From: an uncultured Tolumonas sp.
GTDB lineage: Bacteria > Pseudomonadota > Gammaproteobacteria > Enterobacterales > Aeromonadaceae
Assembly: GCF_963676665.2 (NCBI RefSeq)
Contig: NZ_CAXXNL010000011.1
Span: 1,250,606-1,282,605 of the forward strand
DNA: 32,000 nt
Direction of reading: 5' to 3'
In this document: in pieces, positions 5,326-15,738 of the stretch
Layout of the letters: every line of letters begins with the position of its first letter
How positions within the stretch are numbered: the stretch's first letter is position 1
Position numbers and translations under genes: made by a program
The notes under the pieces: model-generated
What the model saw: only the letters and a program-made list of their open reading frames with translations
What the model was told of the DNA's origin: nothing
The model's database searches: none

Positions 5326-6081
5326 TTAGTTACGTAAGCGGTTCCATAATTGACCAATCCATTCATGCAATGCCATTTCAGAATACATAAGATAACGTCC
5401 GGACGGTAAATAACCATAGGCCGGAACCGCCAATTGTTGCTCTCTGCCTACATATTGGGCCGGTGCCGGGATCGGGTTCATACCTATCTGATGGAATAAT
5501 GTCATAGCTCTGGGCATATGCGATGCGGAGGTAACAAGTGCTGTAGGACGGTCGGAAATTAGCTGACTGTCGCGCGCCACTTCCTCTTCTGTATCTCGGG
5601 CATTTTCAATCAATGTCATGTCATTGCGTGCTACGCCATTAGCTTCGGCGACACGGGCGTACATCTCTGCACCAGAAATTGGGTCGCCAGCAATGCTGCC
5701 GGAAAAAATCATATGAGCCTTGGGGTTCAGCCGTTTTATGCGCAAGGCTTCTTGTATTCGTGCACTAGCGGCTTCAGTGAGCTGGCTCGCTAAAGGCACC
5801 GATGGATCAGAGACATGCCCATGACCTAACACAATAATAAAATCGACAGGCTGTTGGTCGGGAAAAGCGGGGTACATTTGTTCTAACGGGCGATTTAATT
5901 CCACGCTGACCGGGCGGATTGAAAAAGTGATCAAGAGAATGGTTGCCACAGAAACGAGTAACTTTCCACTTTTCTGCCAGCGTGTCAGCCACAATAAAAA
6001 TAAGCCAATAAAAAGCAGTACAGCACAAAAAGGCAGCGGCATTAGCAGTAGCCCTAGCCATTTTTTAAGCATAAAAAGCAT
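5326..6081 (-). CDS. elyC: DUF218/YdcF-family envelope biogenesis factor ElyC (YcbC)-like (251 aa)
   Basis: The N-terminus MLFMLKKWLG..LMPLP and the C-terminal LVTSASHMPRAMTLF...G.NP.PAPA match E. coli ElyC as I recall it. It is divergent from cmoM-mukFEB, exactly as in E. coli. Confidence 0.8.
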   Translation of the reverse strand: MLFMLKKWLGLLLMPLPFCAVLLFIGLFLLWLTRWQKSGKLLVSVATILLITFSIRPVSVELNRPLEQMYPAFPDQQPVDFIIVLGHGHVSDPSVPLASQLTEAASARIQEALRIKRLNPKAHMIFSGSIAGDPISGAEMYARVAEANGVARNDMTLIENARDTEEEVARDSQLISDRPTALVTSASHMPRAMTLFHQIGMNPIPAPAQYVGREQQLAVPAYGYLPSGRYLMYSEMALHEWIGQLWNRLRN

Positions 6082-6175: not shown

Positions 6176-6949
6176 ATGTCAGATCACTCTTTTGATGGGC
6201 TGTCAGAGAAATTTGCACAGAACATCTATGCCACTAGTAAAGGAAAGATCCGTACCGCGGTTGTCTGGCGAGATCTGGAACAGGGGCTGGCGCGCTTTGG
6301 CAATCAGCGGTTACGTATTTTAGATGCCGGTGGTGGCTTTGGCTTTTTTGCACAAAAATTAGCGGCTCTGGGGCATGATGTCACATTATGTGACCTGTCT
6401 GCCGATATGCTGGAACTGGCGAAAGAGCAAATTGCTGAAAAAGGGCTGACTGAACGAATTCGTCTGGTGCATTGCTCTATTCAGGATTTGCCAGAGCATG
6501 TCGATGGCACATTTGATTTTGTGCTGTGTCATGCCGTGGTGGAATGGCTGGCCGATCCAAAATCGACGTTGATGGGTTTGCTGCACTATTTGAAACCGGG
6601 CGGGCTGTTTTCTCTGCTGTTTTACAACCGTGATGCGTTGCTGTTTCAAAGTTTGGTCGTGGGGAATTTTGACTACATCCGTGCTGGTCTGGTAAAAAAA
6701 CGGCAGCAAAAACTAACACCGACCAACCCGCAAACACCAGCCGATGTCTATCAATGGCTGGCGGAGTGGCAGATGCCACTGTTGTGTCGCAGTGGTGTGC
6801 GTGTGATCCACGATTACATGCGGCATAAAGAAGATCAGCACAAAAAGTTTTCCGATTTATTGGAAATGGAATTACGTTATTGTCAGCAAGAGCCATTCGT
6901 CCATTTAGGGCGTTACATGCATGTGCTGGCCAGTAAGCCGTGCCAGTAA
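6176..6949 (+). CDS. cmoM: SAM-dependent tRNA (cmo5U34) methyltransferase CmoM/SmtA (257 aa)
   Basis: Class I SAM-binding motif ILDAGGGFGFFAQKLA. It occupies the conserved first position of the smtA-mukF-mukE-mukB operon. Confidence 0.85.
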   Translation: MSDHSFDGLSEKFAQNIYATSKGKIRTAVVWRDLEQGLARFGNQRLRILDAGGGFGFFAQKLAALGHDVTLCDLSADMLELAKEQIAEKGLTERIRLVHCSIQDLPEHVDGTFDFVLCHAVVEWLADPKSTLMGLLHYLKPGGLFSLLFYNRDALLFQSLVVGNFDYIRAGLVKKRQQKLTPTNPQTPADVYQWLAEWQMPLLCRSGVRVIHDYMRHKEDQHKKFSDLLEMELRYCQQEPFVHLGRYMHVLASKPCQ

Positions 6950-6972
6950 ATCATGATTGATAAGAGATTATA

Positions 6973-8310
6973 ATGACCGAACAACTTAGGCCTGAGCGCA
7001 GCCTGCCGGAATTAGTCGGTTGGGTGAAACAGGAACAGCTGGAACTTCATCTTAGTAATGAACGTTTGGCGTTTCTGATCGCGATATCCTCAATGGCACG
7101 GGATGAGCAAACACAGGAATTAAGCGAAGCCGCATTGCATGATGCGTTTAGTTACGTCAGCCAGTTATATGGTTTGATGGATGAAACCTTATCAGTGCGT
7201 GCGAACAACGCGATCAACGAATTAGTCCGCCAACGGCTGTTATCACGTTTTAATACCGACCCTGTGGCAGGCGAGAGCGTATACCGTTTGACGCGTTTAG
7301 CGGTGGGGATCATCGAATTTTATGTTGATCAGCAGCAGGTCAACAGCGTCAAATTGTCACTGTTGTTAGAGCAGGTTGCCGGTGAGTTGGATAAAGCCTA
7401 TACCGCTGCAGTGCATGCGACCGATGATTCCGCTTGGGAAACAGAAGTTTATCCGCGCCTGAAATATTCGGTGGAAGAGATCTTAAGTCGCATCGATCTG
7501 ACTCAAAGGGCGATGGATGATCAACAAAATCAGGTCAAAGCTGAGATAGCTGATCTTTTGAATCAGAATTGGACGCAGGCCATCCACAACTGCGAAAAGC
7601 TGCTGCGTGAAACTGGCCAGACGTTGCGTGAATTGCAAGATACGCTCGATGCTGCTGGGCATAAATTGCAATCGGGTCTGCTGAATATTCAGGAAACCGC
7701 CCGGGCGCAGGTGATTACCTCGGTACAGGTTGAACACCTGACTTTTGAGCTGCAAAGCCGTATCGATGCGATTCTGAGCTGGGGCCAGCAGTGTATTGAG
7801 CTGTGGGCGCGATATGATCGTCATGTGCATAAATTTATCCGTAACGCGATTGATATGGATAAAAACCGCGTATTTAGCCAACGCCTGCGCGAGTCGATTC
7901 GTGATTTTGATAACCACAACTGGTTATTACTGGTAGCACAAGAAGCCCGTCTGCTGGAACTGCGCGATGAAACGCTGGTGCTGCATAACGATGAGATCAC
8001 CGGCGAACTACCCGTTGCGCTGGAATTCCAAGAAATTCAGGCGCTGGATGAAAAACTTGCTGAACATATCAGCGGCTATCTGGCCGATTTCCAACTGCAC
8101 GGTAAGCCGCTCGATATGGCCGATCTGTTAAAAGATTACCTGCAACAATTTCCTGAATATCAACACTTTGATGTCGCCAGAATGCTGGTCGATCAAGCGG
8201 TTCGTCTGGGTTATTCCAGTGCAGAACTCAGCAGTGCCCGTCATCCGAAGTGGAAACCAATTAACGATTTAGGTGCTAAGGTGCAAGCGCATGTCATTGA
8301 TCAATACTGA
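6973..8310 (+). CDS. mukF: Chromosome partition protein MukF (kleisin), 445 aa
   Basis: Length, operon position, and the N-terminus LPELVGWVKQEQLELHLSNERLAFLIAI match MukF. Confidence 0.95.
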   Translation: MTEQLRPERSLPELVGWVKQEQLELHLSNERLAFLIAISSMARDEQTQELSEAALHDAFSYVSQLYGLMDETLSVRANNAINELVRQRLLSRFNTDPVAGESVYRLTRLAVGIIEFYVDQQQVNSVKLSLLLEQVAGELDKAYTAAVHATDDSAWETEVYPRLKYSVEEILSRIDLTQRAMDDQQNQVKAEIADLLNQNWTQAIHNCEKLLRETGQTLRELQDTLDAAGHKLQSGLLNIQETARAQVITSVQVEHLTFELQSRIDAILSWGQQCIELWARYDRHVHKFIRNAIDMDKNRVFSQRLRESIRDFDNHNWLLLVAQEARLLELRDETLVLHNDEITGELPVALEFQEIQALDEKLAEHISGYLADFQLHGKPLDMADLLKDYLQQFPEYQHFDVARMLVDQAVRLGYSSAELSSARHPKWKPINDLGAKVQAHVIDQY

Positions 8311-9013
8311 GTTACCTATCGCATTACGCCTTGCACAGGCGATTGCCAACCCGCTGTTTCCGAAATTGGATACCGCGCTACGCAGTGGCAAACACATCAG
8401 TGCCGACGATTTAGATCAGCACTCTTATCTGCTTGATTATCATGATGAGCTGGAAAGTTTTTACAGCCGTTATCAGGTGGAATTAATTAAAGCGCCGGAA
8501 GGTTTTTTCTACATCCGCCCGCGTTCAACTTCAGAAATCGGCACTTCAGTGTTGTCTGAGCTGGATATGCTGGTGGGCAAAGTGCTCTGTTATCTCTATC
8601 TCAGCCCAGAGCGTTTGGCGAATGAAGGTATCTTTTCACTGCTTGATTTGCAGGAAGAGGTGGTTTCGTTAGCGGATGAGCGGCAATTATTGCGCATGGT
8701 CAACCAGCGCAGTGGCGGCACCGATTTAGATAAGAAAAAATTGCAGGAACGTATTCGTACCTCGATGCGGCGTTTGCGTCGGTTAGGTATGGTCACCGCA
8801 TTGGGTGTGGGCGATAAATTCCGCGTGAATGAAGCCGTGTTTCGCTTTGCTGCCGACGTTCGCACTGACGAAGACCCACGCATTGTGCAGTTACGCATGA
8901 TCCGCGAGGGCGAAGCGATTTTACATGATGATGAATTACCAACCCGTGAAACCGTATGGGATTCACTGGATGAAGCAGAAGAAGATGAAGAGCAATTGGG
9001 ACTGGATATATGA
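8291..9013 (+). CDS. mukE: Chromosome partition protein MukE (240 aa)
   Basis: I place the start at ATG 8291 (MSLINTELPIALRLAQAIANPLFPKLDTALRSGKHI), which aligns with the E. coli MukE N-terminus. The track start at 8273 is a GTG upstream extension. The gene overlaps the mukF stop by 20 nt. Confidence 0.93.
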   Translation: MSLINTELPIALRLAQAIANPLFPKLDTALRSGKHISADDLDQHSYLLDYHDELESFYSRYQVELIKAPEGFFYIRPRSTSEIGTSVLSELDMLVGKVLCYLYLSPERLANEGIFSLLDLQEEVVSLADERQLLRMVNQRSGGTDLDKKKLQERIRTSMRRLRRLGMVTALGVGDKFRVNEAVFRFAADVRTDEDPRIVQLRMIREGEAILHDDELPTRETVWDSLDEAEEDEEQLGLDI

Positions 9014-12000
9014 TCACGCGCGGTAAATTTCTCTCTTTCACCATGATCAACTGGAACGGCTTTTTTGCTCGAACCTTTGAACTCGATCAGATGGTGACGA
9101 CATTATCCGGCGGTAACGGCGCGGGTAAATCGACCAGCATGGCGGCGTTAATCACGGCGCTGATCCCCGATCAGACGTTGCTGCATTTCCGTAATACGAC
9201 AGAAGCCGGTAGTTCTTCGGCCAGCCGTGATCGTGGCTTATACGGTAAATTACAGCGTGGTCACTGTTATTCCCTGATTGATGTACTCAATTCCAAAGGG
9301 CAACGTTTGTGGTTTGGCGTGCACTTAGAGCAAGTGGCTAACCGCGACAACAAAGTCAACATCACGCCATTTTGTTTGCTCGATGTGCCTGCGGCGCTGC
9401 AACCGACTGATTTTTTACTGGAAAAATTAGATAGCGATAAGGCGAAAGTGCGTCCGTTTAACGAACTGCGCAAACAGGCGGCAGAGCTGGGCGCTATTCG
9501 TTTCGTCAAATTCAATTCGGTGACCGATTATCACAATGTGATGTTCGAATACGGTGTGACAGCGAAAAAACTCCGTGATCAACGAGATCGCTCAAGATTT
9601 TATCGCCTGATCGAAGCGTCACTGTATGGTGGTATCTCATCTTCCATCAGCCGTTCGCTGCGTGAATATTTGCTGCCAGAAAATTCTGGTGTGCGGAAAG
9701 CATTTCAGGATATGGAAGCGGCGATCCACGAAAATCGCCGTACTCTTGATGCCATTAAAGATACACAGTCGCAACGCGATCTGTTCCGTCATTTGATCAC
9801 CGAAACCACCAATTATGTGGCGGCCGATTATGTGCGTAATCAGAGCGAAAAGAACCGTTTATCCGAATTGGCGCTGCATGGACGTAAGCAGTTGCAGGAT
9901 AAACAGCGTTTGATCCGCGAAGAAAAACAGCGAGCGATTTATCTGGCAGAAGAAGCCGAGCAGATGGGTGCCCGTGAGAAACATCTGACCGAAGATCTGG
10001 AATTAGCTGCCGAGCATCTGGCGAAAGTCATGGCCGCAACTGGCTTGACCAATAAGATTGTGCAATATCGTGAAGATGTTGAAGATCTGAGCGTTAAAGC
10101 GGAAGAGCAGTCGGCTATTACGCTGGAACTGACGGAAGAAAAAGCCGAGCTGGAGCTGCGGAAATTACAAAGTGAAGACGAAGCCGACAGCCTGAAAAGC
10201 CAGTTGGCCGACTACCAGCAAGCGCTGGATGTGCAGCAGACGCGGGCGATCCAATATCAGCAAGCAGTTAATGCGTTGGAACAAGCACAAAAACTGTGTG
10301 ATTTGGCGGATTTGACCCCGGATAACGTGGCTGGTTTTCAGCAGACCTTACGCGATCAGGAACAACAAGCAACCGACCAAATGTTGTCGTTACAGCAGCG
10401 TCTGCGCTTAGCGAAAGCGGCGGCCGATCAATACGAACAGGCATTTACTACCTTACAGCAAGTCACCGGCCCGATTTTCCGTGAGCAGGCGTGGGAACAG
10501 GCGCAAAAAGTCATCGAACAAGCGCGTGAACACCGTACATTAGTGGCTCGTCGTGCACAGGTTGAAAGTGCTTTGCTGGATATTCGTCGTAATCAGGAGC
10601 AGCAAAATGCGCTGATTGCCGTTCAGGAACAACTGCTGCGTCAGCTCGAAACGCAAGGCAGTCAGTATGACCTGACTGACAACGAGCAGTTGAGCGAGTT
10701 AGCCGCGGCATTGGCAGAACAGCAAGAGGATTTGCAACAACGCTTAGAACACGATCAGCAAGATCGCATTCGACTGCATCATCAACTCGATGCGACACGG
10801 CAACAGATTGAACAGCTGCGGAAAAAAGCACCGGCATGGTTGTTGGCGCATGAGAAATTAGAAAAGCTGCAGGAAATGACTGGTGAAACACTCGATTCAC
10901 CGGTTGCCATCAGTCAGTTACTGCAACGGACGCTGGAACAAGAGCGCTCACTCGAACAGGAAAAACGCCTGTTACAGCAGCAAAAAGAGAGCTTAGAGCA
11001 ACAGCTGCGCAACCTGCAGCAGTTTGCCGGGAATGAAAACCCACAGTTGGTGCGCATTTGCGAGCAACTAGGCGGCGTGCTGTTGACCGATGTGTATGAC
11101 GATATCTCACTTGACGATGCGCCGTATTATTCCGCCTTATTTGGCCCGGCCCGCAGCGCTATTGTGGTGGTTGATCTGGAAGGTGCGATTAATCACCTGA
11201 ATACGCTGACCGAGTTACCGGAAGATATTTATCTGATCCAGGGTAACCCCGATGCGTTCGATGAAAATCTGCACGATGCCAGCGAGTTTGATAAAGCTGT
11301 GTTGGTGCGAGCCAGTCAGCGAGAAATTCGTTATTCTCGTTATCCTGAAGTGCCAGTCTTTGGTCGTGCAGCTCGCGAACAACGTATAGAAGTGCTGTCA
11401 GCACAACGTGATGAAATTGTTGAAACTTATGCCAAGTTGGCATTTGAGCAACAAAAACAGAATCGTTTATACCATCATCTCAGCCAGTTTATGACTGAGC
11501 ACCTGCATGTGGCGTTTGAAGATGACCCAGAAGCAGCGCTGGCGGTTTTACAAACTGAGATCCGCCAGACTGAGAATAATCTGCAGCAACAGCAGCAAAA
11601 CGAACATCAATATCGCCAGCGTGTGATGGCGTTGCAGCAGCAACAACAGCTGGTTGCTCGTCTGCAATCGCAATTTAATCTGTTGTTTGATAATTCGCTG
11701 AATGATCGTCTGCAACAAGCAGAAACAGAATTTGCAACGTGCCAAAGTGCTCAACAGTTCCTCGATCAGCATGACAAGGCGTGTCGTAAGCTGGAAACAT
11801 TACTTGATGCGCTGCGCGAAGACCCTGCTGCATTCGATGAATTACAGCAAGCCAGCTTTGCTGCCGAGCAGCAGCTGACGGCCGTTCGTCGCCAGGCGTT
11901 TGCGCTGGATGAGTTATTTGCCCGTCGTGCCTATTTTGCCTATCACGATGCTGAGAGTTTGTTAGGTCAAACCTCTGAAATCAGTGAGCGGTTAAAACAA

Positions 12001-13464
12001 AAACTGGGCGATGTGGAGCAACTGCGTCGTCAGTTAGCGGAGCAACTGAAACAGATCACACAACGCTATCAGGAAGCGCTGCAAATCCAGACTGCACTTA
12101 ATTCCAGCTTACAGGCTAAAACGCAGACATTGCAAGAGTTCGAGCGTGAGCTGCAACAAATGGGTCTTCAGATAGCGGCTGACATGGAAGATCAGGCGAG
12201 AGGTAAAAAACGCGATCTGGAAGATCAGTTGGTGCGTACCCGTAGTCGCCGCACGCAGGCGGAAACGCAATATCAGATCTGCCGCCGCGATATAGACAGT
12301 TTGAATCAGCGTTTCAATGCAGAAAATAAAGAGTACCGCGCTGCGCGTCATCTGCTGCTGGAACACAAGAAAAACTGGAGTCGTGTATTAACGTTAGCGC
12401 GCACTAATGGCGTAGAAAAACAGCTGAATCGCCGTGAACTGGCGTATTTGGAAGCAGAAGAGCTACGTTCCATGTCCGACAAATCGTTGGGAGCATTGCG
12501 GTTAGCAGTGGCAAACGATGACTCGCTGCGCGACACGCTGCGCTTATCAGAAGGTAATCGACAGACCGAGCAGAAAGTGCAATTTTACATTCAGGTCTAT
12601 CGCTATCTGAAAGATCGCATTCGTCATGACATTATCCGTTCTGATGATCCAATCGATGCGATTGAAGAAATGGAAATTGAGCTGGCGCGTCTGGCCGATG
12701 AACTGAAGCAACGTGAAACGCATCTATCGCTCTCGTCACACGAAGTAGCAGCGAAGATCACTAACATCATTCGCCGTGAGCAAAATCGTATCCGCGTGAT
12801 GAACCAAGGGCTGCAAAACATTACCTTCGGTCAGGTGCGTGGCGTACGCTTGAATGTGAACGTACGAGAGTCATATGCGCGCTTATTGCAAACGTTGGGT
12901 GAACACGCGCAGCAACATCAGGATCTGTTTGCCAGTAACGAACTGAGCTTCTCAGAAGCGATGGCGAAGCTGTTCCAACGCCTGAATCCGCACATCGATC
13001 AGGGCGAGCGTAGTTTCCAAGTGTTGGGTGAAGCGCTGCTTGATTACCGGAATTACCTTGAGTTGGAAATTGAAGTATTACGTGGTGTCGATGGTTGGTT
13101 GCGTGCAGAAAGTGGTGCTTTGTCGACCGGTGAAGCGATTGGTACGGGGCAGGCTATTTTGCTGATGGTGTTGCAAAGCTGGGAAGATGAAAACCGCCGT
13201 CTGCGTAGCAGCGATATTGAACCTTGCCGTCTGTTGTTCCTCGATGAAGCTGCGCGTCTGGATGCTAAATCAATTGCGACACTCTTTGAGTTGTGTGAAC
13301 GACAAGATATGCAACTGTTGATTGCCGCACCAGAAAATATCAGCCCGGAAAAAGGCACCACCTACAAACTGATCCGTAAGGTACATGGTAAACAAGAACA
13401 TGTGCATGTGGTTGGTTTACGCGGATTTGGTGGCAGCAGCGACACACTGCCATTGAGTGCGTAA
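9010..13464 (+). CDS. mukB: Chromosome partition SMC-like ATPase MukB (1484 aa)
   Basis: Walker A is LSGGNGAGKST. Long coiled-coil arms are present, and the C-terminal signature/Walker B region reads LSTGEAIG...LLFLDEAARLD. An ATGA overlap with mukE indicates translational coupling. Confidence 0.97.
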   Translation: MITRGKFLSFTMINWNGFFARTFELDQMVTTLSGGNGAGKSTSMAALITALIPDQTLLHFRNTTEAGSSSASRDRGLYGKLQRGHCYSLIDVLNSKGQRLWFGVHLEQVANRDNKVNITPFCLLDVPAALQPTDFLLEKLDSDKAKVRPFNELRKQAAELGAIRFVKFNSVTDYHNVMFEYGVTAKKLRDQRDRSRFYRLIEASLYGGISSSISRSLREYLLPENSGVRKAFQDMEAAIHENRRTLDAIKDTQSQRDLFRHLITETTNYVAADYVRNQSEKNRLSELALHGRKQLQDKQRLIREEKQRAIYLAEEAEQMGAREKHLTEDLELAAEHLAKVMAATGLTNKIVQYREDVEDLSVKAEEQSAITLELTEEKAELELRKLQSEDEADSLKSQLADYQQALDVQQTRAIQYQQAVNALEQAQKLCDLADLTPDNVAGFQQTLRDQEQQATDQMLSLQQRLRLAKAAADQYEQAFTTLQQVTGPIFREQAWEQAQKVIEQAREHRTLVARRAQVESALLDIRRNQEQQNALIAVQEQLLRQLETQGSQYDLTDNEQLSELAAALAEQQEDLQQRLEHDQQDRIRLHHQLDATRQQIEQLRKKAPAWLLAHEKLEKLQEMTGETLDSPVAISQLLQRTLEQERSLEQEKRLLQQQKESLEQQLRNLQQFAGNENPQLVRICEQLGGVLLTDVYDDISLDDAPYYSALFGPARSAIVVVDLEGAINHLNTLTELPEDIYLIQGNPDAFDENLHDASEFDKAVLVRASQREIRYSRYPEVPVFGRAAREQRIEVLSAQRDEIVETYAKLAFEQQKQNRLYHHLSQFMTEHLHVAFEDDPEAALAVLQTEIRQTENNLQQQQQNEHQYRQRVMALQQQQQLVARLQSQFNLLFDNSLNDRLQQAETEFATCQSAQQFLDQHDKACRKLETLLDALREDPAAFDELQQASFAAEQQLTAVRRQAFALDELFARRAYFAYHDAESLLGQTSEISERLKQKLGDVEQLRRQLAEQLKQITQRYQEALQIQTALNSSLQAKTQTLQEFERELQQMGLQIAADMEDQARGKKRDLEDQLVRTRSRRTQAETQYQICRRDIDSLNQRFNAENKEYRAARHLLLEHKKNWSRVLTLARTNGVEKQLNRRELAYLEAEELRSMSDKSLGALRLAVANDDSLRDTLRLSEGNRQTEQKVQFYIQVYRYLKDRIRHDIIRSDDPIDAIEEMEIELARLADELKQRETHLSLSSHEVAAKITNIIRREQNRIRVMNQGLQNITFGQVRGVRLNVNVRESYARLLQTLGEHAQQHQDLFASNELSFSEAMAKLFQRLNPHIDQGERSFQVLGEALLDYRNYLELEIEVLRGVDGWLRAESGALSTGEAIGTGQAILLMVLQSWEDENRRLRSSDIEPCRLLFLDEAARLDAKSIATLFELCERQDMQLLIAAPENISPEKGTTYKLIRKVHGKQEHVHVVGLRGFGGSSDTLPLSA

Positions 13465-13470
13465 TAATGG

Positions 13471-13497
13471 AAGGCAGCCTTGGCTGCCTTTTCTTTT
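13471..13497 (+). terminator. Rho-independent terminator after mukB
   Basis: The stem AAGGCAGC (13471-13478) pairs with GCTGCCTT (13483-13490) across the loop CTTG, followed by TTCTTTT. Confidence 0.8.
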
Positions 13498-13512
13498 GGA
13501 TAACAATTGAGA

Positions 13513-14439
13513 ATGATGAGCCCAGAGCAAATATTGAGTTCAGCACCGACGGAGTTAATCGCTCGTTTACTGGATAAACGGCAGATCCGTATTCGTAAGC
13601 GCTGGGCCATTATTCAGCTCAACTTATGGTTGCAGCAAGGCTGGGTTACGGCACAAGGTGAGGGCATCTTTAATTTAACGAATGCCGGCGAACAAGCTTT
13701 CCGCCAGTATTTACTCACTCAAGGTGAAAACTCACTGGAGTTGCTGCTACAACAACTGGATATTCAACTGCCAGAGCGTTGTAACAGCCACATCCTTTCT
13801 TATTTGCTAAAACAAGATACCAAAGTCACGCTGGAACACATGCACGAGCATGAAATCAAAGTGTTGCGCGATAGCTATCTGTTGCTGCGTTGTAACCTGC
13901 CGTGCAGTATTTTTATGCAATCAGGCGAATTGATCGATGTCAGCACCTTGTTTAGTGCATGGGGTGAAGTCGCTATTCCTGAGCGAGCGATTAGTGCGAT
14001 TACAAAAATTCTTTGGAAGGAAAAACCGCCACAGCACGTCATTACGATTGATAACCGTGATGCGTTCGTCAGTATGGCATTGCCTGCTGACACGTTACTG
14101 ATCCACGCTCCGCTAAAAGACACGACGATGGCTGAGCAGTTATTTCGTGCGTTGACGGATAATATTCACTGGCGCCATTTCGGCGATCTGTCACCAGTAA
14201 GTTTCCAACAAGCCAATTTGTTTGCTGAGCGAATACAGCGGCAGTTAGCGCTGTTTTTACCTGAAAACTGGCCGGATTACCTGCGACTATTGGGCAAACC
14301 GCTTGTGGCGAACGAGAAATGGGCGTTAGCGGGTCTGACGCGTCAGCAGCAAATAAATTTACAATTCCTCTTCGAGAACCAGCAGAAACTGCCACAACAG
14401 GTCATGGTTTACGCAAAAAACTGGATCCACCTGACATAG
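13513..14439 (+). CDS. Hypothetical protein (~308 aa): putative N-terminal winged-helix plus C-terminal degenerate JetD/MksG-like (DUF2220/Toprim-like) domain
   Basis: This is a long ORF with no competing frame. The track start at 13507 is TTG, and I prefer ATG 13513 or 13516. A wing-like segment reads WLQQGWVTAQGEGIFNLTNAGEQAF. The C-terminal ordered motifs are HVITIDNRDAF (nt 14035-14067), HWRHFGDLSPVSF (nt 14167-14205) and KLPQQVM (nt 14386-14406). They recall the JetD_C pattern ..vENxxxF / YWGDxDxxGF / rLEQE with acidic residues replaced. That it is a CDS is well supported; the family assignment comes from memory of motifs only. Confidence 0.6.
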   Translation: MMSPEQILSSAPTELIARLLDKRQIRIRKRWAIIQLNLWLQQGWVTAQGEGIFNLTNAGEQAFRQYLLTQGENSLELLLQQLDIQLPERCNSHILSYLLKQDTKVTLEHMHEHEIKVLRDSYLLLRCNLPCSIFMQSGELIDVSTLFSAWGEVAIPERAISAITKILWKEKPPQHVITIDNRDAFVSMALPADTLLIHAPLKDTTMAEQLFRALTDNIHWRHFGDLSPVSFQQANLFAERIQRQLALFLPENWPDYLRLLGKPLVANEKWALAGLTRQQQINLQFLFENQQKLPQQVMVYAKNWIHLT

Positions 14440-14547: not shown

Positions 14548-15738
14548 ATGTTTGAGAAGGTGACTCAGGCTCCAGCCGACCCTATTTTGGGTTTAACCGA
14601 AGAATTCCGTAATGACCCGCGCACTAACAAAATCAATCTGGGTGTTGGTATTTATAAAGATGAAGCGGGTGCCACGCCAATTCTCAACTGTGTGAAGAAA
14701 GCAGAAAAAATTCTGCTGGAAACAGAAACCACCAAGAACTACCTGAGTATTGAAGGTAATCTGGAATATGGTCAGCTGGTGCAGGAACTGTTGTTTGGTG
14801 CTGATCATGAAATCGTGACCAGCAAACGAGCTAAAACAGCACAAGCACCGGGCGGCACTGGTGCACTGCGTATTGGTGCTGAGTTTTTATTCCGCCAGGG
14901 CATTTCTAAGAAAGTTTGGATCTCTAATCCGACCTGGGTAAACCATTTCCAGGTATTCGGTGTCGCAGGAATGGAAACCGCGGAATACCGTTATTATGAT
15001 GCAGCCAATAAGAACCTTGATTTTAATGGCATGCTGGAATCATTATCTGCTGCGGTAGCAGGTGATGTAGTGCTGCTGCATGGTTGCTGCCATAACCCAA
15101 CCGGTGTTGATCCATCACTGGAACAGTGGGAAGTGTTAGCAAAGTTCTGTGCCGAACGTAAATTGCTGCCATTCTTTGACTTTGCTTATCAAGGCTTCGG
15201 TCGTGGCGTTGAAGAAGATGCGGCTGGTCTGCGTGCTTTTGCTAAGTATAACAAAGAGTTGCTGGTTGCCAGCTCCTTCTCTAAAAACTTTGGTCTGTAT
15301 AATGAGCGTGTCGGTGCCATCACGCTGATTACTGATAATAGCGAAGTTGCACTGCGTGCCTTCAGCCAGATCAAAACTACCATTCGCGCAAACTACTCTA
15401 ATCCGCCATCACACGGCGCTGCAGTAGTTGCGACTGTGCTGAAAGATACAGCTTTGCGTACTGAATGGATCGCCGAAGTTAAAGCCATGCGCGATCGTAT
15501 TTGGGAAATGCGTGAATTATTCGTGCAGAAACTGAAAGCGAAAGGTATTCAGCAGGATTTCAGTTTTATCACGGAACAAAATGGCATGTTCTCATTCTCT
15601 GGTTTGAATAAAGATCAGGTAACTCGTCTGAACAAAGAGTTCGCGATCTATATCGTTGGTTCTGGCCGTATCAGCGTTGCCGGTATTACCAGAAATAACA
15701 TCGAAGCCCTGATTGAAGGCATCGCAGCAGTGATCTGA
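14548..15738 (+). CDS. aspC: Aspartate aminotransferase (396 aa)
   Basis: [14 protein letters not shown]...[11 protein letters not shown]...[15 protein letters not shown] (PLP lysine motif)...[12 protein letters not shown], with the same length as E. coli AspC. Confidence 0.96.

Follow-up and report, generated by a model that had tools for sequence, protein, structure and literature searches.

How did a protein resembling the nuclease subunit of a plasmid-defence complex come to be encoded beside a housekeeping condensin, and can it still act as a nuclease? The question is raised by a 32,000-nucleotide (nt) stretch of DNA from an uncultured Tolumonas sp. (contig NZ_CAXXNL010000011.1, positions 1,250,606 to 1,282,605 of the forward strand; hereafter the window), in which an open reading frame (ORF X, or simply X; Table 1) stands between the mukFEB genes and aspC. 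The initial annotation of the window had proposed that ORF X encodes a degenerate relative of JetD/MksG, the Toprim nuclease subunit of Wadjet/Mks systems. MukBEF is described as a complex that 'lacks MksG/JetD' (Burmann et al., Cell 2025, PMC7617805); the same work reports nuclease loss across the Wadjet group, and in its operon table both E. coli MukBEF and Endozoicomonas montiporae appear as FEB (PMC7617805). An origin of MukBEF from a Wadjet-type defence system was called a tempting speculation in a 2023 review (PMC10586767). A literature search found no paper that connects genuine mukFEB operons with a JetD-like gene, and DUF7281, one of the Pfam families considered below, is not mentioned in the library searched.

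ORF X is a full-length MksG/JetD homologue, with an N-terminal arm/CAP-like winged helix and a C-terminal Toprim domain of the Topo VI-A type, and it falls in the short (~310-340 amino acids, aa) MksG subfamily of those Wadjet-type operons of gene order F-E-B-G (FEBG operons) that are nearest to MukBEF. It is a degenerate form of a known family in an unexpected place, of interest, together with its intact relatives, for the evolution of SMC (structural maintenance of chromosomes) complexes. Building on the demonstrated homology, fold, motif degradation, purifying selection and distribution of genomic contexts, the favoured explanation is that ORF X would be a non-cleaving relic of the ancestral nuclease subunit of MukBEF, a reading drawn from sequence to which, taken whole, a probability of about 0.8 is assigned.

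Homology and fold of ORF X

Direct searches with the window protein do not reveal its family. No JetD model matched it in Pfam, NCBIfam or PADLOC, and PDB sequence searches with the window protein, a Tolumonas profile or a 60-sequence family profile did not find JetD or MksG. Orthologues of ORF X reached 13.7-15.5 bits against Pfam JetD_C (E 0.012-0.041, residues ~170-246), below the cut-off of 22, and their matches to DUF7281 were likewise below threshold. A word-indexed homologue search with the single protein stayed within Tolumonas, and the range was extended by an exhaustive search with a Tolumonas-only profile, which returned 152 cluster representatives at E<=1e-3 and 67 at E<=1e-10. A Pfam scan of 60 representatives identified JetD_C in 43 (best 4e-11), DUF7281 in 23 and DUF2399 in 10, and the JetD_C-positive proteins were reached by the Tolumonas profile at E 1e-13 to 1e-30. 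DUF7281 (PF23947) and DUF2399 (PF09664) give weak to moderate matches across the X family, with the Tolumonas group below gathering scores. Furthermore, the PADLOC JetD type I models matched an intact relative (P0032; E 4e-12; labels beginning with P or L are our own), the intact paralogue of Aeromonas, termed X1 (E 2e-9), and an Endozoicomonas copy (E 8e-10), but neither the window protein nor Aeromonas X2, which belongs to the same degenerate clade as ORF X. A few X2 orthologues are named JetD C-terminal, DUF2399 or DUF2220 domain protein in UniRef; domain-level recognition therefore exists in databases, though not for Tolumonas nor for this context.

Because no curated JetD profile matches the window protein itself, its link to MksG/JetD is transitive. 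The Tolumonas-only alignment was compared by hhalign with a set of 18 MksG proteins encoded after MukB-like genes in FEBG operons, including Plasticicumulans TCO82710.1, which is listed as MksG in the literature (Data S1, Burmann et al., PMC7617805). This gave a probability of 99.94% and an E-value of 5.9e-37 over 282 columns (residues 14-300). An AlphaFold2 model built from the 60-sequence alignment reached a predicted local distance difference test score (pLDDT) of 94.4, an earlier 14-sequence model having been poor in its N-terminal half (pLDDT 62.5). When this model was searched against the PDB with Foldseek, the four top-ranked structures were C. glutamicum MksG (8b7f, E 2.4e-6), P. aeruginosa JetD (7til, E 1.6e-5), Topo VI-A (1d3y, E 1.5e-4) and Spo11 (8urq, E 1.8e-3), each with a probability of at least 0.96; the fold is that of MksG/JetD. 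The hhalign and Foldseek results therefore establish homology to MksG/JetD over both domains.

Two of the checks suggested in the initial annotation are answered by these searches. The profile comparison with JetD/DUF2220 yielded no direct match, but it succeeded by way of the intact relatives (JetD_C, PADLOC JetD) and hhalign, while the structural comparison returned MksG, JetD, Topo VI-A and Spo11 as the top solved structures. The winged-helix-like N-terminus that had been noted has moderate support. The AlphaFold2 model places a helix at residues 30-41, strands at 45-49 and 52-55 and a helix at 57-70, and weak matches to the MarR family were obtained for the N-terminal domain by fold (Foldseek probability 0.98, E 0.04) and for the 60-sequence family profile by sequence (E 0.2). 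This domain can also be aligned by hhalign with the N-terminal part of the FEBG MksG proteins.

Three known systems can be compared with X. (i) The MukBEF-proximal FEBG MksG proteins (Plasticicumulans lactativorans TCO82710.1, Sorangium, Bradymonas, Massilia and Sulfurifustis; Data S1, PMC7617805) belong to the same family over their full length, share the size class of X and its position right after a MukB-type SMC gene (~1460-1480 aa) in the order F-E-B-G. However, they carry a full E...DxD...ExE set and their genes overlap or abut the SMC gene, whereas X has D...DxS...PxQ and follows a terminator; moreover, the SMC neighbour of X is a genuine housekeeping MukB, 49% identical to that of E. 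coli, compared with ~25% for the SMC proteins of FEBG systems. (ii) The Wadjet type I JetD/MksG proteins (E. coli GF4-3; P. aeruginosa JetD, 7TIL; C. glutamicum MksG, 8B7F) share the two-domain architecture, but X is ~60-90 residues shorter, shows ~12% identity to them in structural alignments, does not conserve their catalytic residues and stands beside mukFEB with no jetABC genes. (iii) In Topo VI-A and Spo11, as in X, a Toprim fold is preceded by a CAP-like winged helix, although the metal-binding triad of X is not intact and no B subunit partner accompanies it.

Degraded catalytic motifs under purifying selection

Every C-terminal motif string quoted in the initial annotation is present and in register with the motifs of relatives: VITIDNRDAF, HWRHFGDLSP, LFLPENW and KLPQQVM of the window protein align exactly to TVENxGAF, HFGDLDPxG, FIPxFW and WLEQE. 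The accompanying claim that every acidic metal-binding position is changed was too broad. It stands for the DxS and PxQ sites, but D225 is retained and the Glu-to-Asp change at D180 is conservative.

The extent of the degradation was determined by counting motifs in 102 family representatives outside the degenerate clade of the window and in 12 inside it. Outside the clade, the Toprim Glu is present in 100/102, the Asp residues of DxD in 97 (first) and 99 (second), and the glutamates of ExE in 80 (first) and 93 (second); inside the clade, the second Asp is found in 1/12. The full E-D-D-E-E signature occurs in 78 of the 102 and in none of the 12; the window protein reads D-D-S-P-Q and lacks the catalytic set of MksG/JetD. 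Substitutions inside the clade depend on the lineage, with E, D, S or T at the Toprim Glu, H, S, T or E at the second Asp, and P, E, S, Q, C or L at the first Glu of ExE. The family-specific residues R126, E152, T178, H222, P250 and W270 remain fixed in the clade, and D225 is nearly invariant in the alignment of Tolumonas orthologues. Such free drift at catalytic positions, with fold and family residues held fixed, is the pattern that would be expected of a pseudo-enzyme. In characterised members of the family, the MksG substitutions E236A and D279A severely impaired cleavage, with E349/E351 proposed as alternative nucleophiles (PMC10123090), and E248A is the standard cleavage-dead mutant of JetD (bioRxiv 10.1101/2023.11.03.565488). 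We infer from the motifs that catalysis has been lost and that the window protein is apparently catalytically dead.

A subgroup of the wider family (P0041, P0045, P0050, P0054, P0065 and P0080) keeps the Toprim Glu but no longer has the ExE pair or, in some members, the first Asp, with signatures EDDPA, ENDAA, EDEPT, ENDKN and EHDKS. These signatures suggest that catalytic motifs degraded independently in a second lineage.

Strong purifying selection maintains ORF X. The frame is uninterrupted (an alternative TTG start lies two codons upstream, at 13507), and among 19 orthologues of 62-98% identity the alignment has no frame disruption and many invariant residues; the nearest orthologues are from Tolumonas, including Tolumonas lignilytica and uncultured Tolumonas sp. 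The ratio of nonsynonymous to synonymous substitution rates (dN/dS), taken against a 92%-identical orthologue, is 0.064, compared with 0.019 for mukB and 0.025 for aspC. The gene evolves several-fold faster than its neighbours, yet clearly under purifying selection, and it is not a pseudogene. A pseudogene or decaying remnant was considered and is ruled out by this ratio and by conservation across genera.

Genomic contexts and phylogeny of the X family

Relatives with intact motifs were used as queries in a scan of one genome per species, the degenerate-clade alignment being too divergent for a pattern-based scan. In a metagenome-assembled genome (MAG) of the Psychromonadaceae, an X with all motifs intact follows mukF-mukE-mukB after 26 nt, with a ribosome-binding site and no hairpin (L007/L009 10001-10942), and the MukB of this genome is 49% identical to that of E. 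coli. The P0029 organism has the same synteny with X 24 nt after mukB (L054/L055 10001-10933), but its motifs read E to Q and DxD to DxT with ExE intact, as though catalytic decay had set in independently at a mukB-adjacent position. About 25 Aeromonas species carry the second, intact paralogue X1 at 2.4-7.7 kilobases (kb) downstream of mukB (L014-L037, L039, L044; e.g. L033 9890-10882); its E, DxD and ExE motifs are intact and it passes the gathering score of Pfam JetD_C. Four Motilimonas genomes (L010-L013) have an intact-motif X with no mukFEB within 10 kb. No intact-motif Tolumonas locus was returned by the one-genome-per-species scan.

Some details of these loci may be added. The genes between mukB and X1 in Aeromonas are small and variable (a GNAT acetyltransferase, an esterase-like gene and unknown ORFs), and X1 is a JetD-like orphan without jetABC genes in its vicinity. 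In Aeromonas media DSM 4881 (L039 10004-10693), X1 is a 229-aa ORF without the N-terminal part, which may be truncated or frameshifted. Upstream of X in Motilimonas are a pentapeptide-repeat gene and an ArsP-type exporter gene; the downstream synteny is that of the Psychromonadaceae MAG, namely a 255-aa gene, HATPase, LysR and, ~7.5 kb away, aspC.

X also lies directly after MukF-, MukE- and MukB-like genes in Endozoicomonas, Salinisphaera, Plasticicumulans, Pseudoalteromonas and an actinomycete MAG, where the MukB-like proteins of the FEBG operons have ~25% identity to MukB. In Endozoicomonas (L043, L045, L048-L050; e.g. L045 9713-10687), an intact X overlaps a MukB-like gene of 1470 aa at the end of the latter; since Endozoicomonas montiporae was published as FEB without a nuclease, either this species lacks the gene or the published profile missed the short subfamily. 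Rheinheimera muenzenbergensis (L038 5068-10747) has a compact F-E-B-G operon with products of 415, 196, 945 and 341 aa; despite an SMC protein (945 aa) much shorter than MukB, the G protein clusters with the MukBEF-associated X clade. No remnant of X was found between mukB and aspC of E. coli (ldtD, mepK, gloC; best E 0.09).

The degenerate clade comprises Aeromonadaceae: Tolumonas, essentially all Aeromonas species, Pseudaeromonas sharmana and uncultured Aeromonadaceae known from MAGs. In all of its contexts that were read, aspC lies 92-175 nt downstream of X on the same strand. Only Tolumonas and the P0024 lineage, by contrast, have mukB as the upstream gene; in the latter, the order is cmoM-mukFEB-X-aspC and X is just 33% identical to Tolumonas X; a porin gene precedes X2 in Aeromonas hydrophila, and a lipid A acyltransferase gene precedes X in the P0022 lineage. 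The proposal that a JetD/MksG-type Toprim protein is encoded beside mukFEB is thus borne out by hhalign, by the Foldseek matches to 8b7f and 7til and by linkage in many lineages. Linkage of the ORF family to mukB, which the initial annotation had suggested checking, was seen in many lineages, where X directly follows MukB or MukB-like genes, but the constant neighbour in its own clade is aspC.

Trees were built by neighbour-joining and are rough. The X tree recovers the degenerate Aeromonadaceae clade at a bootstrap of 95% and places it as sister to a group of Psychromonadaceae, Motilimonas and P0029 (93%); Aeromonas X1 is the next to branch, followed by the Rheinheimera copy of a Wadjet-type FEBG operon. 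The X copies of MukBEF-bearing bacteria form one clade, with the Rheinheimera FEBG copy branching within it, and the Endozoicomonas and Salinisphaera copies lie outside, those of Endozoicomonas as its sister (joining node 71%). In the MukB tree, the proteins of Tolumonas, Aeromonas and the Psychromonadaceae MAG group with E. coli MukB. The published tree pairs E. coli MukB with Endozoicomonas MksB as sisters (100% support), and FEBG operons make up the next clade (PMC7617805). The histories of X and MukB are congruent as far as rough trees allow, which speaks for X having been inherited vertically together with the MukBEF lineage and then duplicated in Aeromonadaceae, with X1 being lost in Tolumonas.

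At the window itself, translation and Pfam neighbours agree with the described ORF of ~308 aa between mukB and aspC, and the mukFEB genes upstream are canonical, as had been stated, with very strong Pfam matches (1e-52 to 1e-124 for the cluster; MukB N-terminus 1e-124 and MukB_hinge 6e-67 for MukB). Full-length comparison of the window MukB with that of E. coli gives 49% identity (over 1486 aa), and the order elyC-like, then cmoM-mukF-mukE-mukB, is the same in the window and in E. coli. In domains, cmoM(smtA)-mukFEB order and grouping with E. coli MukB, the neighbours of X are those of MukBEF. The genes mukF-mukE-mukB-X are co-directional, as in an MksG/JetD operon, with the qualification that a terminator-like hairpin stands between mukB and X. 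The ORF had been said to fill the whole mukB-aspC interval; it is located there, but the 48 nt before its start hold this GC-rich hairpin followed by a T-run. The hairpin occurs in three Tolumonas genomes with its stem kept and its loop differing (the window; L004 ~9950-9985; L051 ~5956-5985), and a different hairpin occupies the equivalent site in the P0024 lineage (L058 7942-7969). In lineages with an intact or nearly intact X, the mukB-X gap is 24-26 nt, with a ribosome-binding site and no hairpin. A weak terminator-like site was also found 3' of ORF X by the terminator scan.

Table 1. Features of the window relevant to ORF X (window coordinates).
Feature	Position	Strand	Description	Basis
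ORF X	13513..14439	+	308 aa; motif-degenerate MksG/JetD-family protein, likely pseudo-nuclease	Translation, orthologues, dN/dS, hhalign, Foldseek
N-terminal domain, ~residues 1-118	13513..13866	+	Helical region and winged helix, equivalent to JetD arm/CAP (aCAP)	AlphaFold2, Foldseek, hhalign
C-terminal Toprim-like domain, ~residues 119-308	13867..14436	+		Sub-threshold JetD_C in orthologues; JetD_C in intact relatives; Foldseek
D180	14050..14052	+	Position of the Toprim catalytic Glu (E236 of C. glutamicum MksG; E248 of E. coli JetD)	Family alignment
D225-L226-S227	14185..14193	+	In place of the DxD metal-binding motif	Family alignment, motif table
P294-Q295-Q296	14392..14400	+	In place of the ExE pair (MksG E349/E351)	Family alignment
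cmoM-mukF-mukE-mukB	6176..13464	+	Canonical housekeeping condensin cluster	Pfam; E. coli MukB identity; gene order
cmoM-like	6176-6949	+	CmoM/SmtA-type methyltransferase	Pfam
mukF	6973-8310	+		Pfam
mukE	8273-9013	+		Pfam
mukB	9010-13464	+		Pfam
Hairpin and T-run	13469..13498	+	Intrinsic-terminator-like, mukB stop to ORF X start	Terminator scan
aspC	14548-15738	+	Class-I aminotransferase; constant downstream neighbour of the degenerate clade	Pfam

Origin and possible roles of ORF X

The favoured explanation may be set out as a series of steps. An ancestor of the MukBEF lineage would have carried X as a fourth, operonic nuclease subunit (mukF-mukE-mukB-X), a state that would survive intact in the Psychromonadaceae MAG and, slightly displaced, in Aeromonas. 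The Aeromonadaceae copy would have lost catalysis, a terminator would uncouple its transcription from mukB, and the protein would persist in a non-cleaving form, probably dimeric and DNA-binding. As the most speculative step, X may still serve as a non-catalytic accessory that docks on MukB or on bent DNA. The intact-looking copy that relatives carry directly after mukB offers genomic evidence for a descent of MukBEF from a four-subunit, nuclease-bearing plasmid-defence complex.

Several observations weigh against this explanation. The window protein escapes all curated JetD models and its orthologues stay below the JetD_C cut-off, as described above. The intact, mukB-adjacent X is known from a single MAG contig, and the deeper nodes of the neighbour-joining trees are modestly supported (60-71%). 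The neighbour that never changes within the degenerate clade is aspC and not mukB, and no mukB lies within 10 kb of Aeromonas X2 or of X in the P0022 lineage. The terminator-like hairpin 3' of mukB parts ORF X from mukB, and in one Tolumonas-like genome an opposite-strand thioredoxin gene lies between the two (L052 5184-5627); X must therefore have its own promoter there. Finally, D180 and D225 are still acidic and could bind a metal ion. Separately, co-transcription of ORF X with mukFEB, as its last gene, was considered for Tolumonas, and it is ruled out by the conserved terminator together with the thioredoxin insertion in one genome.

What the persisting protein does can be explained in more than one way. 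It is possible, as a tentative proposal, that X still works with MukBEF as a non-catalytic fourth subunit whose aCAP-like domain docks on the head-proximal coiled coil ('larynx') of MukB. It would then grip or bend DNA between two motor units and modulate loading, stalling or unloading instead of cutting. The aCAP of JetD binds the JetC larynx and wraps DNA between the motors (bioRxiv 10.1101/2023.11.03.565488), and X descends from such an SMC-bound subunit. The retention of the whole N-terminal domain in a form alignable with functional MksG proteins, the strong purifying selection and the mukFEB-X order in two lineages whose X proteins share only 33% identity all point the same way. However, X lies far from mukB in Aeromonas (X2) and in the P0022 lineage, and the terminator, with the thioredoxin gene in one genome, intervenes between mukB and X.

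Somewhat more doubtful is the recruitment of X to a role independent of MukBEF, in which the winged helix and a dimeric Toprim scaffold would form a DNA-binding protein or regulator with a selected linkage to aspC. The short, same-strand distance to aspC in every degenerate-clade context read is consistent with such a role, as are the changing gene 5' of X (mukB, porin, lipid A acyltransferase or thioredoxin) and the MarR-like N-terminal domain. Nevertheless, the weak terminator-like site 3' of X speaks against it, and even in E. coli mukB and aspC lie close to each other, so the linkage of X to aspC may be inherited synteny and not function.

It is distinctly unlikely that X still cuts or nicks DNA through a variant metal site formed by D180 and D225, whether linked to MukBEF or standing alone. 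Two acidic residues do persist at metal-binding positions, D225 is nearly invariant among Tolumonas orthologues and purifying selection is strong; yet the second Asp of DxD and both glutamates of ExE are absent, the same positions vary freely among clade members, indicating relaxed constraint on catalysis, and a single substitution at the equivalent Glu or Asp cripples MksG and JetD (PMC10123090; bioRxiv 10.1101/2023.11.03.565488). Lastly, the alternative raised in the initial annotation, an unrelated lineage-specific protein with a chance resemblance of motifs, could appeal to the missing direct matches in Pfam, NCBIfam, PADLOC and PDB sequences, but it is so improbable as to be refuted by the hhalign alignment, the profile search that reaches JetD_C-positive relatives and the Foldseek search that returns the same family.

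With ORF X read as a relic of an ancestral nuclease subunit, the suggestion that it bears on the evolutionary relationship between MukBEF and Wadjet is supported by the intact relatives at mukB-adjacent sites. Apparent transitional states occur on bona fide mukFEB: (i) intact and operonic (Psychromonadaceae MAG), (ii) partly degraded and operonic (P0029), (iii) intact and displaced (Aeromonas X1), (iv) degraded, separated by a terminator but strongly conserved (Tolumonas and other Aeromonadaceae), and (v) absent (E. coli). This series makes the MukBEF-Wadjet evolutionary question directly testable. A further proposal, rather improbable at present, is that some genuine MukBEF complexes are four-subunit Wadjet-like machines (the candidates being Aeromonas and the Psychromonadaceae lineage), with the Aeromonadaceae-wide dead paralogue as a non-cleaving accessory. 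If this were true, a condensin with housekeeping duties would also serve as a plasmid-restriction nuclease, and the dead paralogue, including the Tolumonas gene, would bind the MukB larynx and bent DNA. Natural experiments are offered by the possible restriction of plasmids by Aeromonas MukBEF with X1 and by the role of a conserved dead Toprim subunit.

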